Positions 1,767 to 7,821 of a stretch of DNA of 64,000 nt are shown piece after piece (the first letter of the stretch is position 1; each line of letters opens with the position of its first letter). Source of the stretch: Escherichia phage vB-Eco-KMB39. Location: the sequence record OR539219.1; one strand, 5' to 3'. A program made the position numbers and the translations under genes. The notes under the pieces were generated by a model that was given only the letters and a program-made list of their open reading frames with translations, did not search any database and was not told the origin of the DNA.

Positions 1767-2030
1767 TTATTTCATATTATTAAAATATTCTTCTGCGATT
1801 TCGTCGTTATCATGGTAAACTTTAGAAGACAGTTTAACATAACCTTCAGCAATGAACATGTTAATCACAACCTTTACAGTATACCACTGACCATCTTCAT
1901 TACCCATTACTGCGTAAGTTTCAAACATCGGATGATCAGGACCGATAACTTTAATATCATTCACTGTACGACCGAAATCTTCTGAAACGCATTTCATAAA
2001 GAAGTTGAACAGTTCGCCGTAATTATCCAT
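1767..2030 (-). CDS. hypothetical small protein
   Basis: ORF track gives 1767..2084; start moved to ATG at 2030 (MDNYGELF, GGAGA RBS) because the 2084 ATG lies inside the predicted promoter spacer. Confidence 0.5.
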   Translation of the reverse strand: MDNYGELFNFFMKCVSEDFGRTVNDIKVIGPDHPMFETYAVMGNEDGQWYTVKVVINMFIAEGYVKLSSKVYHDNDEIAEEYFNNMK

Positions 2031-2074
2031 TTCATTCTCCAAGTTGTTTTTCTGTATCAGTAGTTGATAGTTGT

Positions 2075-2104
2075 ATAGTACCATGGAAGAACGGGGATGT
2101 AAAC
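2075..2104 (-). promoter_or_regulatory. T4-early-type promoter candidate (GTTTAC-N18-TACTAT)
   Basis: Minus strand GTTTAC (plus 2099-2104), TACTAT (plus 2075-2080), A/T-rich upstream tract; shares leader motif TATCAACTACTGA with the 6039..6068 copy. Confidence 0.4.
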
Positions 2105-2236
2105 CGTTTTGTGAAAAAATTTTTAAAAAGTTTTAGGGAATTCTAGGGCAGGGATGGGCAATTAAAGGATAGGATAATATATTATAAAGGGTATAAACTA
2201 AATGATGCCTAGAGAGGTCCAGAAAGGCCTAGATAT

Positions 2237-2265
2237 CAAAAAGCCCCAACCTTTCGGTCGGGGCT
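2237..2265 (-). terminator. intrinsic terminator: 10-bp stem, GAAA loop, T-run
   Basis: Minus strand AGCCCCGACC-GAAA-GGTTGGGGCT followed by TTTTT, just downstream of the 2272..2745 gene. Confidence 0.55.
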
Positions 2266-2271
2266 AAAATG

Positions 2272-2745
2272 TTATTTGATTTGTTTAGCAGACCAAATGC
2301 GGTCTTTGATGATTTTTTGGATGTCTTCAACATACTCAAGAGAGTGAGCATGTGGGTTATCTTTGAAACTATAAGCACGAGCTAGCTTTTGGCCTTCGGT
2401 TTTGATTACTAAAAGCTCTTTAAGGATAGCTTCATATTTGGAGATAATTCCTTTAACAATATTTTTCTCTTGTGCGACTTTAGGATCTGCTTTAGGAGCA
2501 GGTTTACCCGAAGCCTTTGCAAAAGCAGCGCCAGTAGCAACTAAACTTTTCCAGGCCATACTAACCGCATTTCCTGTAAATCCTTCTGCTTTCATGTCGC
2601 GAGCAAATTGGAATCGCGATTCGTCAGAAGCATCTTTATAAGAATATTTACCCGCTGCAATGGCTGCTTTTGCGACAGCTTGAATTTCGGTGCTAGATGC
2701 TTCATTTAACACCGCTTCATTTAAAAATTGAGTATATGATTTCAT
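2272..2745 (-). CDS. phage internal protein (head-packaged) with capsid-targeting N-terminus
   Basis: ORF track 2272..2922 trimmed to ATG 2745 (AGGAAA RBS); N-terminus MKSYTQFLNE-AVLNE has the MK(T/S)(Y/F)xxF motif and L-x-E prohead-protease sites; basic Ala/Lys-rich body. Confidence 0.6.
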   Translation of the reverse strand: MKSYTQFLNEAVLNEASSTEIQAVAKAAIAAGKYSYKDASDESRFQFARDMKAEGFTGNAVSMAWKSLVATGAAFAKASGKPAPKADPKVAQEKNIVKGIISKYEAILKELLVIKTEGQKLARAYSFKDNPHAHSLEYVEDIQKIIKDRIWSAKQIK

Positions 2746-2783
2746 CTTATTTCCTGTTTTAATTCGTGGATTTAATATACTAA

Positions 2784-2791
2784 TATTTATA
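2784..2791 (-). promoter_or_regulatory. late promoter TATAAATA
   Basis: Exact TATAAATA on minus strand 39 nt upstream of the internal-protein ATG. Confidence 0.45.
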
Positions 2792-2793
2792 CT

Positions 2794-2822
2794 AAAAAGC
2801 CCCAACCTTTCGGTCGGGGCTA
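2794..2822 (-). terminator. intrinsic terminator, identical copy of the 2237..2265 hairpin
   Basis: Same 24-nt AGCCCCGACC-GAAA-GGTTGGGGCT plus T-run; lies at the 3' end of the tRNA/stable-RNA transcription unit. Confidence 0.55.
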
Positions 2823-2829
2823 AGCCTTG

Positions 2830-3137
2830 CGGCAACCTTGTCGGGGTTCCACCTGCTAAGGCAAGTGTTTGTACGAAACGCCGGGATTCGAACCCGGTTA
2901 TTAAGTAGTTGACGCTACTCAATATTTTTAAAAGGCCATATCTCGACCATATCCGAACGTTCCGTCAAAAACGCTACTCGGCTTATGGCAAAGATATTTC
3001 CTCGAATCGATAATTCGGTGCGCCGTTTCTGCTGTGATATAAGGGGACATTAACAAAACATAAAGATTTATTAATGCCAGTCCTTAAACAGGGAACATCA
3101 GTCCGACGACTTGCCGGTAGCGACCCGGCTTCTTGTC
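2830..3137 (-). ncRNA. candidate small stable RNA(s), tRNA-like 3' module
   Basis: No ORF; minus strand contains CCGGG-TTCGAAT-CCCGG (T-arm-like) with pairing CGGAACG/CGTTTCG but no CCA and no standard cloverleaf; position recalls T4 species 1/2 RNAs (memory only). Confidence 0.25.
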
Positions 3138-3215
3138 TGGTCGAGGCAGTAGGGATCGAACCTACGACCCAGGACTTAGAAGGTCCTTGCTCTTCCTTCT
3201 GAGCTATGCCTCGTA
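3138..3215 (-). tRNA. tRNA-Arg (anticodon TCT)
   Basis: Hand-folded cloverleaf: acceptor CGAGGCA/TGCCTCG, anticodon loop CTTCTAA, T-arm GTAGG-TTCGATC-CCTAC, encoded CCA. Confidence 0.75.
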
Positions 3216-3217
3216 TT

Positions 3218-3292
3218 TGGCGGACGTGATAGGATTCGAACCTATAACCAATCGCTTAACAGGCGATCGCTCTGCCATTGAGCTACACATCC
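3218..3292 (-). tRNA. tRNA-Asn (anticodon GTT)
   Basis: Acceptor GGATGTG/CACGTCC, anticodon stem ATCGC/GCGAT, loop CTGTTAA, T-arm TAGG-TTCGAAT-CCTA, encoded CCA. Confidence 0.7.
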
Positions 3293-3296
3293 AAAT

Positions 3297-3383
3297 TGGT
3301 GGGGAGTGGTGGAGTCGAACCACCCGAGTCGCAATGACAATGAATTTACAGTCCACACCGCTACCCCTACGGGATAACTCCCC
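3297..3383 (-). tRNA. tRNA-Tyr (anticodon GTA), type II with long variable arm
   Basis: 87 nt; acceptor GGGGAGT/ACTCCCC, anticodon loop CTGTAAA, variable arm GTC-ATTGC-GAC, T-arm GGTGG-TTCGACT-CCACC, CCA; anticodon stem needs two G-U pairs. Confidence 0.55.
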
Positions 3384-3392
3384 AAATTAATT

Positions 3393-3467
3393 TGGTGGCC
3401 CTGGGTGGAATTGAACCACCATCTGGCGATTATGAGTCGCTTGCTTGAACCTTCCAGCTACAGGGCC
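3393..3467 (-). tRNA. tRNA with CAT anticodon (Ile-lysidine or Met)
   Basis: Acceptor GGCCCTG/CAGGGCC, anticodon loop CTCATAA, T-arm GGTGG-TTCAATT-CCACC, encoded CCA. Confidence 0.7.
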
Positions 3468-3468
3468 T

Positions 3469-3545
3469 TGGTGCTGATTGACGGAATCGAACCGCCGACA
3501 TCCTCATTACAAGTGAGGTGCTCTACCTACTGAGCTAAATCAGCA
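3469..3545 (-). tRNA. tRNA-Thr (anticodon TGT)
   Basis: Acceptor TGCTGAT/ATCAGCA, anticodon stem CCTCA/TGAGG, loop CTTGTAA, T-arm GGCGG-TTCGATT-CCGTC, CCA. Confidence 0.8.
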
Positions 3546-3549
3546 AAAC

Positions 3550-3639
3550 TGGCGGAGGCGATAGGATTTGAACCTATGAGTCGCCGGAGCGACTGCCGGT
3601 TTTCAAGACCGGTGCATTCAACCACTCTGCCACGCCTCC
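3550..3639 (-). tRNA. tRNA-Ser (anticodon TGA), type II
   Basis: 90 nt; acceptor GGAGGCG/CGCCTCC, anticodon stem CCGGT/ACCGG, loop CTTGAAA, long variable arm, T-arm TAGG-TTCAAAT-CCTA, CCA. Confidence 0.8.
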
Positions 3640-3642
3640 AAA

Positions 3643-3658
3643 TATTTATATATTTATA
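3643..3658 (-). promoter_or_regulatory. two tandem TATAAATA late-promoter motifs just upstream of tRNA-Ser
   Basis: Plus-strand tatttata at 3643-3650 and 3651-3658 (TATAAATA on minus), between segB stop and tRNA-Ser 5' end; very close to the tRNA 5' end, so function uncertain. Confidence 0.3.
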
Positions 3659-4262
3659 TATTGTTAATTTGATTTAGAATTCTTTTTGCTTGAGTATGAC
3701 TTACGCCAATATGCTTAGCATATTTAGATAATTCGCCGCGTTTAGAAAAATCATATAATTTAGAAATTTCTATTCTTCTTTTTCTTTCATCCGCAGAAAC
3801 TTTTGCTTCGTTTGCTTTTGCTATTTTACGTTTAGCTTCTTGAGAATGAGTTTTACCAGCAAAGCCATTCTTCATTAATCCATTTGAAGACCATCCTTTT
3901 AATTTTCCGTTAGAATGTGCCTTTTTAACACCCAATGAAATTAATTCGCGTTGCTGATCTGTCATAGGATAATTATTTATATGATCCCATCCACCTTCAC
4001 CTCCAAGTTTTAAATTATACACATCTGGTCTATTTAAAAACTCTTCTGTGACAATATTTTTCTCGGCTTCAAGCATAGATTCTTTATCATCAAAATACTC
4101 TAATATTTCTTTAGAAAAATTTTCTATACCATATTTATCTTGGGCTCTTTTTAATAATTTACCAGAACCCATATATCCATCATCTAAATTTTCGGTAGAA
4201 TGCACACCAATATAAATTTTATTATTAATTTTATTTGTTATTTTATAAAGATAAAAATGCAT
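3654..4262 (-). CDS. segB: GIY-YIG homing endonuclease embedded in the tRNA cluster
   Basis: GIY-YIG motifs FYLYKITNKINNKIYIG and YMGSG; start moved from 4304 to ATG 4262 to avoid overlapping tRNA-Gly; segB-like position by memory of T4. Confidence 0.75.
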   Translation of the reverse strand: MHFYLYKITNKINNKIYIGVHSTENLDDGYMGSGKLLKRAQDKYGIENFSKEILEYFDDKESMLEAEKNIVTEEFLNRPDVYNLKLGGEGGWDHINNYPMTDQQRELISLGVKKAHSNGKLKGWSSNGLMKNGFAGKTHSQEAKRKIAKANEAKVSADERKRRIEISKLYDFSKRGELSKYAKHIGVSHTQAKRILNQINNI

Positions 4263-4308
4263 ATCAGTCCCTAATAAAGAACTGAGCGTCTCACGACGAG
4301 TCATAAAT

Positions 4309-4382
<74 letters not shown>

Positions 4383-4387
4383 AAATT

Positions 4388-4474
4388 TGGTGCGAGAAGT
4401 GGGACTCGAACCCACAAGGAAATAATTCCGCAGCATTTTAAGTGCTGTGCCTTTACCAATTTGACCATTCTCGC
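4388..4474 (-). tRNA. tRNA-Leu (anticodon TAA), type II
   Basis: 87 nt; anticodon loop CTTAAAA, long variable arm, T-arm GTGGG-TTCGAGT-CCCAC, CCA; matches my recollection of T4 tRNA-Leu. Confidence 0.85.
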
Positions 4475-4475
4475 G

Positions 4476-4548
4476 CTGGGAATAAAGGACTCGAACCTTT
4501 GCATCCTGGAATCAAAATCCAGTGCCTTACCAACTTGGCTAATTCCCA
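4476..4548 (-). tRNA. tRNA-Gln (anticodon TTG), CCA not encoded, 1-nt spacer to tRNA-Leu
   Basis: Acceptor TGGGAAT/ATTCCCA plus discriminator G, anticodon stem CTGGA/TCCAG, loop TTTTGAT, T-arm AAAGG-TTCGAGT-CCTTT. Confidence 0.8.
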
Positions 4549-4634
4549 ATTATTAACAAAGGCTCTTTAGCAAGAACCCTTGATGATAGAGGGTATTAAT
4601 CAGTGCGGTATGAGTTAATAATAACAAATAATTC

Positions 4635-5150
4635 TTAAAGCAAATTAATCATTTTAACGGTCGGCAAAACAATTTCTTCTTCAATATAAGCGAATTCGAC
4701 GCTTTCAACTACACGTAGGAAATCATAGTCATAGTATTCAGAAGCATGACCAAGAATATCAATGAGGCCTTCAGATATCTTATTACCATTCACAAAGAAT
4801 AAGTCAAATACACGTTCTTCGTCTTCTTCGGATTTATTACCAAGGTCAACTTCTATATCAAAGACCTTTTTAATGAATTCTGGATAAAGCTGGTCTGAGA
4901 ACAGTCCTTCAACCAAGTATTCATAAATAAAAAGCGATTGCTCGCTGAACAAGCCATTACCACAATAACGTTCAGCTTTAGTACTAGAATGTCTACTTTT
5001 AAACTTCTTTAAAAGATATTGAAATTGTAAGATTTCATGCTCTTCTACGCCAAACAGTGTTTTAGTTTTATAGTTGTCACCATCATTTTCCCATGTAGTT
5101 ACATCAATCACATAACCCTGCGGAATTGTAGTACCTAAACAAACATTCAT
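4635..5150 (-). CDS. hypothetical strongly acidic protein
   Basis: 171-aa ORF; about one residue in five is D or E; start overlaps the stop of the upstream gene. Confidence 0.6.
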   Translation of the reverse strand: MNVCLGTTIPQGYVIDVTTWENDGDNYKTKTLFGVEEHEILQFQYLLKKFKSRHSSTKAERYCGNGLFSEQSLFIYEYLVEGLFSDQLYPEFIKKVFDIEVDLGNKSEEDEERVFDLFFVNGNKISEGLIDILGHASEYYDYDFLRVVESVEFAYIEEEIVLPTVKMINLL

Positions 5151-5440
5151 TTGCTCACCATATTAATGTAAGTATATTCAATACATTCAAGACCCAAAGG
5201 ATTCTTGAAAATATCATATTCAAGAGGACCTTTTTCCGTTTCAATAAAGAAATCAAAATTTACTGTATTAAATTTACGGTCTTCCTTCACTAATTTAACC
5301 TGAGAAGATGAACGGTCAATGTAAACCTTTTCAACTTCAAAACACGTTAAAATGCCATAATCATCAATCAAGGCTTTAGCTGCTTCTTGATCATATTTAT
5401 ATCCATTTTCAACGGACGATACTTTAGCATAAAGAATCAT
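5147..5440 (-). CDS. hypothetical protein
   Basis: 97-aa ORF tightly packed in the same minus-strand operon. Confidence 0.55.
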   Translation of the reverse strand: MILYAKVSSVENGYKYDQEAAKALIDDYGILTCFEVEKVYIDRSSSQVKLVKEDRKFNTVNFDFFIETEKGPLEYDIFKNPLGLECIEYTYINMVSK

Positions 5441-5442
5441 TA

Positions 5443-5832
5443 TCAGCCTTCATCAACAATAGTATGAGTGTGAGCATTTACAATTTGCCACCAATCAAAG
5501 CGATTAGAACCATACATCGGTTTGTTTTCATTTTCTTTGATAATATCACGGAGTTCATCTTCGGTAGCGGCTTTCGCGATTAAATCAGCATATCCACCAC
5601 GAGGATAATAATTATCACCTGCAAAAAGTAAAAAGTTTGGTTTAATGTTATTGAACTCTTCAAGAGTAATAACTTTTCCTGACGGTTGAACAATCTCTAC
5701 ATATTTATATCCCAATTTTTGAGCAGCATCTACTGCTTCAAGCAAAGTATCATGAGCCCATCCAATTTGACAACCTGGCTTTTCAGATGGATTAGCCTGA
5801 TAATCCGCATACACTTTATACATTCTATTCAC
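5443..5832 (-). CDS. hypothetical protein
   Basis: 129-aa ORF; its start overlaps the upstream small ORF by 8 nt. Confidence 0.55.
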   Translation of the reverse strand: MNRMYKVYADYQANPSEKPGCQIGWAHDTLLEAVDAAQKLGYKYVEIVQPSGKVITLEEFNNIKPNFLLFAGDNYYPRGGYADLIAKAATEDELRDIIKENENKPMYGSNRFDWWQIVNAHTHTIVDEG

Positions 5833-6010
5833 CTTTAGAAATTTTATCCATAACGATAGCGATTAAACCAATTAAAAATGCTACTACAAGTGAAAAAACG
5901 TTTTCTGCTGTAGTCAATAATCCGCATATAAATCCAACAAACATTGAAAAACTAAAAGCAGAAGCAGAAATTGCAATAGCAACATTTCGAATTAATTCAC
6001 AACGTTTCAT
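5825..6010 (-). CDS. small hydrophobic (likely membrane) protein
   Basis: 61 aa with two hydrophobic stretches; GAGGAG RBS and early-type promoter directly upstream. Confidence 0.5.
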   Translation of the reverse strand: MKRCELIRNVAIAISASAFSFSMFVGFICGLLTTAENVFSLVVAFLIGLIAIVMDKISKGE

Positions 6011-6038
6011 TTTATTCTCCTCAGTAGTTGATAGGGTA

Positions 6039-6068
6039 ATAGTATCACAACTAAAACCCTATGTAAAC
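6039..6068 (-). promoter_or_regulatory. T4-early-type promoter candidate (GTTTAC-N18-TACTAT)
   Basis: Minus strand GTTTAC (plus 6063-6068), TACTAT (plus 6039-6044), A/T-rich upstream; overlaps the 3' end of the internal-protein gene. Confidence 0.45.
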
Positions 6069-6080
6069 AACTTTGTGAAA

Positions 6081-6338
6081 TTATTTTAAATCTTCTAATC
6101 GTTTCTTCATCTTAGAACCATTTTTAGCAATTTCTCCTGCATCGGAGCATAACGCTAAAAGTGCTTTAACTTTAGTTTGGTCTCCTTTAAAAGACGAAGG
6201 ATCGACCGCAGCAGCAAGTTCTTTAATACGAGAGAAAAGACGCTCAGCTTCAGCTAAAGCCATTCCAAGCTTTACTTCCATACCGTGGGAAGATTCGGTG
6301 ATAGTAGTTTTTGTAGCAAACTCTTTGAAAGTTTTCAT
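6081..6338 (-). CDS. internal protein (IPI-locus type) with capsid-targeting N-terminus
   Basis: 85 aa; N-terminus MKTFKEFATKTTITE with I-T-E protease site; sits next to 57B as ipI does in T4 (memory). Confidence 0.6.
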   Translation of the reverse strand: MKTFKEFATKTTITESSHGMEVKLGMALAEAERLFSRIKELAAAVDPSSFKGDQTKVKALLALCSDAGEIAKNGSKMKKRLEDLK

Positions 6339-6368
6339 TTTATTTTCCTAATTAATTTTGATGAGGTA

Positions 6369-6398
6369 ATAGTATCACTACCTCATCAGCATGTAAAC
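6369..6398 (-). promoter_or_regulatory. T4-early-type promoter candidate (GTTTAC-N18-TACTAT), near-identical repeat of 6039..6068
   Basis: 33-nt block atgtaaacaactttgtgaaattattttaaatc is identical at 6061-6093 and 6391-6423. Confidence 0.45.
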
Positions 6399-6410
6399 AA
6401 CTTTGTGAAA

Positions 6411-7095
<685 letters not shown>

Positions 7096-7096
<1 letters not shown>

Positions 7097-7821
7097 TATA
7101 GTACCTTTAGTGTATTTTTAATTTTAGAAAAAAGTTCTTCAAGAGAACCATCGTTTGTAATTACTAAATCGCCATCACGAATTGGCAATCCAGCTTCTGT
7201 AATATGTGTATCATTGGATTTTTGACCAGGACGAACTACATGAATTACTGTAGCACCCATCGCCCTAGCCGCATCCATTTCATGATCTTGACGGGTATCA
7301 GGAACGATATAATAATCATAACCTGAGTTAAATTTATCAAGATAATCTAAAGCAAATAATTTTACCCAATACATGCGGTCGAAGTTATTAACAATCAAAT
7401 CCGTACCTAGGGCTTGCATCAGACGACGGACTGACCATTGATCTTCAATATTATTTATAACGTCAATAATCTTGTTAAATGCTACGGAATTAACTGATTC
7501 TTGTCCTTCGTCATCAAAAACAAACACACCTTTAATTGGGCTTTTACCGTTAAGATAGCAAAATGCTTGTTCCATAATCGTGATTACTTCTAATTTAGTC
7601 AGATTTAAATTAGTCTCACGATCATAGTCAATTCCTTCAAACTCTTTACGAGTTAAGCAAGGATAGTCAGTGTTTGCTGCAAATACTCCCCATGCATAAG
7701 CCAATGCATCCTTAATAGGACCAGCAAGTTGGTATTTAACTGCAGAATAATTGCTCATGATAAAATCAGCAGTAGTATCTTTTCCACTACGCTTTACACC
7801 GCTTAAAAAGATTAGTTTCAT
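7096..7821 (-). CDS. 1: deoxynucleoside monophosphate kinase gp1
   Basis: Start set to ATG 7821 (MKLIFLSGVKRSGKDT, P-loop GxxxxGK(S/T)); track ORF begins 13 codons upstream; GAGGAG RBS. Confidence 0.9.

Follow-up and report, generated by a model that had tools for sequence, protein, structure and literature searches.

The trna.4-trna.3-trna.2 block of Escherichia phage vB-Eco-KMB39 as a probable early accessory unit with a fourth gene that T4 lacks

We consider a block of four small open reading frames (ORFs) at 4635-6068 in a 64,000-nucleotide stretch of Escherichia phage vB-Eco-KMB39 (record OR539219.1), the whole of which we call the window. We argue that this is the T-even trna.4-trna.3-trna.2 early accessory block in a longer, ancestral form that also carries a gene of the PHROG 2290 family. 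We put the probability of this reading at about 0.6. Judged from their sequences, three of the four genes are almost certainly trna.4, trna.3 and trna.2 of T4. The fourth encodes an acidic protein of 171 aa. The block probably supplies early accessory factors for interaction with the host that matter only under some conditions or on some hosts. A preliminary description of this DNA had marked out the same four genes with a promoter and a ribosome-binding site, and this is confirmed, with all features on the minus strand. It had also stated that none of the proteins resembles one from T4. This is wrong for three of the four, which match T4 Trna.4, Trna.3 and Trna.2. The locus itself is already known, and all of its features are annotated in public genomes.

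The gene identities rest on several comparisons. A megablast search with the region returned 869 phage records, all of them T-even relatives, and the AR1 and RB32 records annotate trna.4, trna.3 and trna.2 plus an unnamed ORF. GenBank has entries for vB-Eco-KMB39 with exactly these protein sequences. Trna.4 (5825..6010, minus strand, 61 aa) is 100% identical to its T4 and RB32 counterparts in direct protein comparison and matches PHROG 1692 over residues 1-61 (E=6e-35). Trna.2 (5147..5440, minus strand, 97 aa) is 98% identical to the T4 protein over 91 aa and 99% identical to that of RB32. It matches PHROG 2023 (E=1.5e-48), and its homologues bear the precomputed Pfam family PF27001. Trna.3 (5443..5823, minus strand) is only 58% identical to T4 Trna.3 (E=1e-44). 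It matches PHROG 1411 (E=1.5e-55), and its homologues bear the precomputed Pfam label PF26894. The conserved C-terminal motif NFLLFAGDxYYPxGGY...FDWWQIVNA is present and its invariant columns were confirmed. All three proteins match their families over the full length and sit in the corresponding position. Their homologues are confined to close T4 relatives, unlike those of PHROG 2290.

Trna.3 can be read in two ways. It has 126 aa from the ATG at 5823 or 129 aa from a GTG at 5832 (5832..5443). The ATG is the likelier start because its AGGTG is better placed and because related annotations give 126 aa. The N-terminal half of Trna.3 occurs in at least two allelic forms, MYKVYADYQANPS… here and MSINEYYVYAGDYANPSHFEG… in T4 and RB32, and the C-terminal domain is nearly invariant. 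A constant core that carries a variable recognition lobe typically shows such a mosaic. Two candidate relationships within the block were rejected. BLAST gave a weak match of Trna.2 to the 171-aa protein (E=0.6), which was dismissed, and a profile-profile comparison of Trna.3 with PHROG 2290 gave a probability of 0.9%, which means no relationship.

The fourth gene (4635..5150, minus strand) is the orthologue of RB32ORF135c and AR1_142. Its product is 94% identical to RB32ORF135c, matches PHROG 2290 over residues 1-170 (E=8.7e-69), and has no T4 counterpart. When T4 is aligned with the window the difference is a single indel of about 510 bp, which begins in the final codons of trna.2 and ends in those of the 171-aa gene. 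Apart from this, T4 and the window have essentially the same spacer before tRNA-Gln. At its start the T4 spacer still has remnants of the final codons of the 171-aa gene, and T4 Trna.2 ends in …IVNTYHHKW, which differs from the C-terminus in the window (window 4600-5230 against 3090-3210 of T4 stretch L003). Short repeats of the AAATG(A/G) type mark the ends of the indel and suggest that the T4 lineage lost this segment by a microhomology-mediated deletion. Mosigvirus-type phages retain the order trna.4-trna.3-trna.2-ORF-tRNA even though the ORF has diverged to about 43% identity. Since this order is kept despite such divergence, the four-gene form is the ancestral one, with T4 carrying the deletion. 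By tblastn the 171-aa gene is found in 583 phage records, 253 of them at >80% identity, and trna.2 in 803, about 650 of them at >80% identity. Only about 40% of close relatives carry the fourth gene, T2 among them.

All four ORFs are under purifying selection when compared with AR1, RB32 and T4. Against these three phages trna.4 shows 4-7 synonymous changes and 0 non-synonymous ones. The 171-aa gene and trna.3 have ratios of non-synonymous to synonymous substitution rates (dN/dS) of 0.09-0.12. For trna.2 the ratio is 0.03-0.2 against RB32 and T4; the value of 0.47 against AR1 is inflated by misalignment of the C-terminus. In T4 the early class of transcripts includes trna.2, trna.3, trna.4 and all eight tRNAs, and Trna.2 and Trna.3 were detected as early proteins during infection while Trna.4 went undetected (PMC9697503 and supplement). 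Transposon insertions hit 92-97.5% of the TA sites in the three T4 genes, which are classed as 'Non-essential' (HIDEN-SEQ preprint supplement). Their CRISPRi-ART class is 'Not Fit' (PMC11879866 supplement). The early expression and the non-essential classes together make these early accessory genes that are dispensable on E. coli K-12.

This evidence bears directly on the view that the ORFs have no function at the protein level. One could suppose that their translation stabilises or times a tRNA precursor transcript, or that they are decaying filler in a hyperplastic region. They are non-essential, they occupy a leader position before the tRNAs, and the 171-aa gene comes and goes within the genus. 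However, selection on the proteins is strong (no non-synonymous change in trna.4, dN/dS about 0.1 elsewhere), Trna.2 and Trna.3 are made in T4 infection, residues of the 171-aa family are invariant across very distant phages, and both AlphaFold2 (AF2) models are confident. Since selection acts at the protein level, a purely cis-acting leader role is contradicted, and the whole scenario is very improbable.

The preliminary description had also proposed that a GTTTAC-N18-TACTAT promoter drives the block, and this promoter is present. It is of the early sigma-70 type and lies at 6039..6068 (minus strand). The -35 element can be taken as GTTTAC (6068..6063) or TTTACA (6067..6062) and the -10 element is TACTAT (6044..6039) with a TG upstream, so that the promoter is TG-extended with a spacing of 17 or 18 nt. 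The GAGGAG Shine-Dalgarno sequence of trna.4 follows at 6017..6022 (minus strand), 6 nt before the ATG at 6010. A consensus match alone proves nothing, because generic sigma-70-like sites are no commoner in the region than in shuffled sequence (11 against 10.7 expected). The repeated context of the promoter says more. It lies in a 69-nt cassette at 6028..6096 (minus strand) that is a direct repeat, at 84% identity, of a second copy at 6358..6426 (minus strand), and this second copy precedes the Ip5-type internal-protein gene. A 20-nt core, TTTCACAAAGTTGTTTACAT, occurs twice exactly (6061-6080 and 6391-6410), with 0.03 matches expected by chance. T4 has both cassettes at the corresponding two positions, and its trna.4 promoter is nearly identical. 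The hexamers also fit the published consensus of the promoter-early stem-loop (PeSL) early promoters of T4 and PST, TTTACW-N17-TAYWAT (PMC4122927).

Each copy of the cassette also holds an inverted repeat. In the first copy ATAGGGT/ACCCTAT brackets the -10 element, with a fold z-score of -2.5. In the second copy TGATGAGGTA/TACCTCATCA has another sequence but the same position around the -10, with a fold z-score of -4.0. Both variants are kept at the same two T4 sites, so that pairing is preserved though the sequences differ. A hairpin in the cassette is possible only in DNA or in read-through RNA from upstream.

The ORFs are closely packed, as had been described. Trna.3 abuts trna.4 (or overlaps it by 8 nt), a 2-nt gap separates trna.3 from trna.2, and a 4-nt ATGA overlap joins trna.2 to the 171-aa gene. 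Junctions of this kind are the usual signs of translational coupling, which may operate here. The block also lies where it was said to lie, with the tRNA genes (4548..3138) on one side and the Ip5-type internal-protein gene (6338..6081) on the other. The first tRNA genes downstream are tRNA-Gln, tRNA-Leu and tRNA-Gly (4309..4548, minus strand), which share the strand of the block. A terminator scan finds no terminator-like site between the stop codon of the 171-aa gene (4635) and tRNA-Gln (4548). What lies there is an 11-bp hairpin without a U-tract (4557..4582, minus strand), whose stem is identical in T4, RB32 and AR1 and whose loop varies. An Rfam search over 2000-7500 gives tRNAs only. A middle promoter with a MotA box was looked for by eye before tRNA-Gln and rejected, since the TGCTAAA box is no more than partial and a clean TAnnnT -10 is missing. 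The same-strand layout without a terminator fits the early timing that the ORFs and the tRNAs share in T4, and we therefore infer that the two are co-transcribed in KMB39. The four ORFs would then be the protein-coding leader of the tRNA transcription unit, and we regard this as likely. It also agrees with classical work on the T4 tRNA region, which reportedly located a promoter some 1 kb ahead of the tRNA genes.

Searches for a function of the proteins gave little. Scans of all four against Pfam, NCBIfam and PADLOC returned nothing significant, in a copy of Pfam that does not contain PF26894. The PHROGs hit are four families of 'unknown function' (1692, 1411, 2023 and 2290). Sequence searches of the PDB with three of the proteins and with a 68-member family profile gave nothing below E=0.05, and no relative of known function was found by sequence or fold for any of the four. 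No functional study turned up in the literature under the gene names, the UniProt or PHROG identifiers or the motif. The sole experimental clue is that Trna.2, along with Inh, was enriched in a DRT1 defence reverse transcriptase pulldown from T4 (PMC13275509).

The fresh element is the PHROG 2290 family, namely its size, invariant motif, conserved acidity and association with tRNA arrays, and we found no paper on these. A full HMMER scan of 1.84 billion representative proteins yielded 1,029 matching clusters (50% identity) with E<=1e-3, of which 534 reach E<=1e-10. Almost every match is a stand-alone protein 130-185 aa long, and 68/68 diverse relatives tested belong to PHROG 2290. Conservation was read from these 68 members, whose identity to the window protein is 22-46%. 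None of them departs from E21, N22, D23 or D25, and G12, W20, G34, F50, G64, N65 and R146 are conserved in 96-99%. The motif at the tip of the hairpin is G-Y-x-x-x-(V/I)-T-(T/S)-W-E-N-D-(G/A)-D-x-Y-x-T. In the window protein it is the β-hairpin W20-E21-N22-D23-G24-D25, and all motif residues are present, including the I/L position in G-Y-x-(I/L)-x-(V/I)-T, the G-N loop and the C-terminal R-V-x-E strand. The AF2 model of the 171-aa protein has a pLDDT of 89. By analogy, the E-x-D-x-D-x-Y-x-T pattern may be an acidic cation-binding loop, which it resembles.

The strong acidity that had been pointed out for the 171-aa protein stands (D+E 18.7%, net charge -17, isoelectric point (pI) 4.43), and only 5.6% of the ORFs in the window match its per-residue negativity. 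The acidity is family-wide, with D+E at 18.5 +/- 1.8%, a mean net charge of -15 and a pI of 4.05-5.59 (median 4.43). Conservation of an acidic residue is limited to 10 columns.

The IMG/VR members of the family come from T4-like phages and from jumbo phages (200-500 kb). Of 80 loci, 41 have a tRNA gene no more than 4 kb from the PHROG 2290 gene; the two then always share a strand, and the distance is often below 100 nt. With clustering at 40% identity the association holds in 19 of 35 clusters, and about ten clusters that are not T4-like are still associated with tRNAs. The chance expectation of roughly 5-15% is our own estimate from tRNA cluster sizes and comes with no matched control family. 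Among 90 large neighbour ORFs in loci that are not T4-like there are 3 CCA-adding-type nucleotidyltransferases, 2 RNA ligases, a Thg1, a PNKP phosphatase and 2 DUF2828 proteins. Outside the T4-like phages PHROG 2290 has no conserved protein-coding neighbour.

Individual loci add some detail. A 343-kb jumbo phage in IMG/VR has two PHROG 2290 paralogues (stretch L035, 3998-4456, and stretch L061, 3986-4450). Of these, one has a gene for a CCA-adding-type enzyme two ORFs upstream and, directly downstream, a gene with a weak match to an RlaP-like nucleotidyltransferase of RNA repair. In a 139-kb cyanophage contig ARAGORN predicts, inside a tRNA array, a permuted gene resembling that of transfer-messenger RNA (stretch L064, 4396-4713), which starts where the PHROG 2290 gene (3977-4399) has its stop codon. 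In a 116-kb phage contig the PHROG 2290 gene is preceded, at a distance of 15 nt, by a tRNA with a CTA anticodon (stretch L074, 3916-3992). ARAGORN labels it Pyl, and it would read as an amber suppressor.

We propose the following scenario for the block. The repeated PeSL-type cassette would fire immediately after infection, and the four small ORFs would be translated as a coupled unit. Transcription would most likely run on through the conserved hairpin into the tRNA genes. The 61-aa peptide consists of two hydrophobic helices, as noted before (grand average of hydropathy 1.22), and with two predicted transmembrane helices Trna.4 would be a small hairpin peptide of the inner membrane. Trna.3 is predicted to have an alpha/beta fold in two lobes, of which the N-terminal one evolves fast, and Trna.2 would be a small soluble protein. 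In the 171-aa protein the E-x-D-x-D hairpin loop, which probably binds a cation, would form one conserved site together with G64-N65 and R146. This site might engage a universally conserved, positively charged partner that handles nucleic acid in tRNA or RNA metabolism, for example a tRNA-directed nuclease. Acting as a decoy or inhibitor the protein would protect the translation supply that comes from the neighbouring tRNA genes. We offer this mechanism for the acidic protein, with its cation binding, mode of action and target, only tentatively, and the odds are against it.

Several points weigh against our account of the block and of its fourth protein. Neither experiment nor homology gives any of the four proteins a function, and it is by inference that we have the block co-transcribed with the tRNAs in this phage. 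The 171-aa gene is not needed for tRNA expression itself, since T4 and about 60% of close relatives do without it. The association with tRNAs is partly inherited synteny among T4-like phages, and about half of the PHROG 2290 clusters have no tRNA within 4 kb. Finally, a catalytic metal site would account equally well for three carboxylates and an asparagine that never vary.

That last point leads to the main rival. The 171-aa protein could be a small metal-dependent enzyme that acts on tRNA or RNA ends or on a nucleotide, in tRNA maturation or repair. Among proteins only 22-46% identical to that of the window, 100% keep E21, N22, D23 and D25, and at least 97% keep G64-N65 and R146. E-x-D-x-D would resemble acidic Mg2+/Ca2+-binding loops. 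The gene is also found in tRNA arrays beside CCA-adding enzymes, an RlaP-like nucleotidyltransferase, RNA ligases, Thg1 and PNKP. We consider such an enzyme unlikely on present evidence, though it is the alternative to be taken most seriously. The decoy and the enzyme both point to a broader proposal. PHROG 2290 may be an unrecognised, widespread family that is functionally tied to phage tRNA arrays, either as a cation-loaded decoy against a host tRNA nuclease or decay enzyme, or as a new small enzyme of tRNA repair or maturation. This is doubtful too, and we state it as speculation.

A second rival shifts the weight to Trna.2. The block would then be an anti-defence cassette by virtue of Trna.2 as a binder, inhibitor or trigger of DRT-type defence, and the other genes would be cargo unrelated to this role. 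Early expression, dispensability and a neighbourhood of known or likely anti-defence genes speak for it. However, a single pulldown is weak evidence, and the authors of the DRT1 study named Dda as the candidate determinant and left Trna.2 aside (PMC13275509). In the comparison considered, HIDEN-SEQ shows no conditional phenotype for trna.2. We hold the Trna.2 scenario to be rather improbable.

The third rival is the idea, raised in the preliminary description from the acidic composition, that the 171-aa protein is an anti-restriction DNA mimic. As in Ocr, ArdA or Arn, its carboxylates would stand in for the DNA backbone and block type I or other restriction enzymes. The conserved acidity and a weak resemblance to phi29 p56 are all that speak for it. 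A pattern of conservation that is point-like and gene neighbourhoods that are centred on RNA count against a mimic. No similarity to Ocr, ArdA or Arn was found in sequence or fold. The 171-aa protein is acidic, though less so than Ocr and ArdA. We think that a DNA mimic is improbable.

We return to the early accessory block and its surroundings. The internal-protein slot (6081-6338, minus strand) holds an 85-aa Ip5-type protein that is 100% identical to RB32 Ip5 and replaces T4 IpI. A 2025 preprint describes a non-homologous gene at the same slot in phage Bas37 as a new McrBC inhibitor. By analogy of the slot the Ip5 protein is therefore a candidate inhibitor of type IV restriction. The next gene encodes the 151-aa gene 57B product (6411-6866, minus strand) and matches Pfam Acb1, a phosphodiesterase that counters CBASS (cyclic-oligonucleotide-based anti-phage signalling systems), at E=2.6e-60. 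Given the Acb1 match and the Ip5 slot, the block lies directly downstream of two known or likely anti-defence genes.

On the other side, the window has nine tRNA genes (Gln, Leu, Gly, Ser, Thr, Met(CAT), Tyr, Asn and Arg; 3138-4548, minus strand). A gene for a SegB-like GIY-YIG endonuclease (3654..4304, minus strand) is located between tRNA-Gly and tRNA-Ser, and the six further tRNA genes (Ser, Thr, Met, Tyr, Asn and Arg, minus strand) lie beyond 3654 and extend to 3138. The 216-aa homing endonuclease is 100% identical to an AR1 protein that bears the name 'segD'. It shares 83% identity with T4 SegB over the N-terminal 117 aa, whereas the C-terminal DNA-binding half is unrelated. The enzyme has a catalytic domain of the SegB type, its targeting domain has been swapped, and its position in the tRNA cluster is slightly different.

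At the very least, four early, conserved and non-essential proteins without a function persist in the best-studied group of phages. The most useful lead is the gene that is missing from T4, with its more than 1,000 clusters, its invariant acidic hairpin and its presence in the tRNA arrays of unrelated large phages. PHROG 2290 has probably been overlooked because T4 lost the gene. If the link to tRNAs is functional, it bears on how phages secure translation against tRNA-targeting defences. If the decoy or the enzyme is the true explanation of PHROG 2290, a protein component is added to the phage-tRNA counter-defence strategy.

It remains to compare the locus with known systems. The 171-aa protein has 6-8% identity and no sequence similarity to phi29 p56, Ugi, Ocr, ArdA and Arn. 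It differs from mimics of the phi29 p56 type by a helical insertion of about 95 residues and by the WENDGD hairpin, which has no known counterpart. The PeSL cassettes of T4-type phages (Arbiol et al. 2010; Comeau et al. 2014) are likewise a repeated unit of about 70 nt with an early promoter and an inverted repeat. The cassette described here shares their features: it occurs in two copies, it has the consensus promoter and inverted repeats that fold, and its copies stand at the borders of the ip slot. As with PeSLs, these copies border small genes that can be swapped in a hyperplastic region, and the annotation of RB32 records 43-bp direct repeats that flank the Ip7 and Ip9 genes of that phage. 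The likeness is incomplete in that the inverted repeat here brackets the -10 and there is no obviously separate terminator hairpin. The closest system is T4 itself. There T4p135, T4p134 and T4p133 (UniProt P13322, P13323 and P13324) have the same order, strand, promoter cassette and slot between an ip gene and tRNA-Gln, with IpI as the internal protein, so that trna.4-trna.3-trna.2 lie between ipI and tRNA-Gln. T4 differs in having the other N-terminal allele of Trna.3 and, from the indel of about 510 bp, another C-terminus of Trna.2. Its eight tRNAs (Gln, Leu, Gly, Pro, Ser, Thr, Ile and Arg) differ as well, with Tyr and Asn present and Pro absent in the window. For the fourth gene the counterparts are RB32ORF135c, AR1_142 and RB69ORF151c of PHROG 2290. 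RB32ORF135c occupies the same slot between trna.2 and tRNA-Gln, and the KMB39 gene shows no material difference from these.

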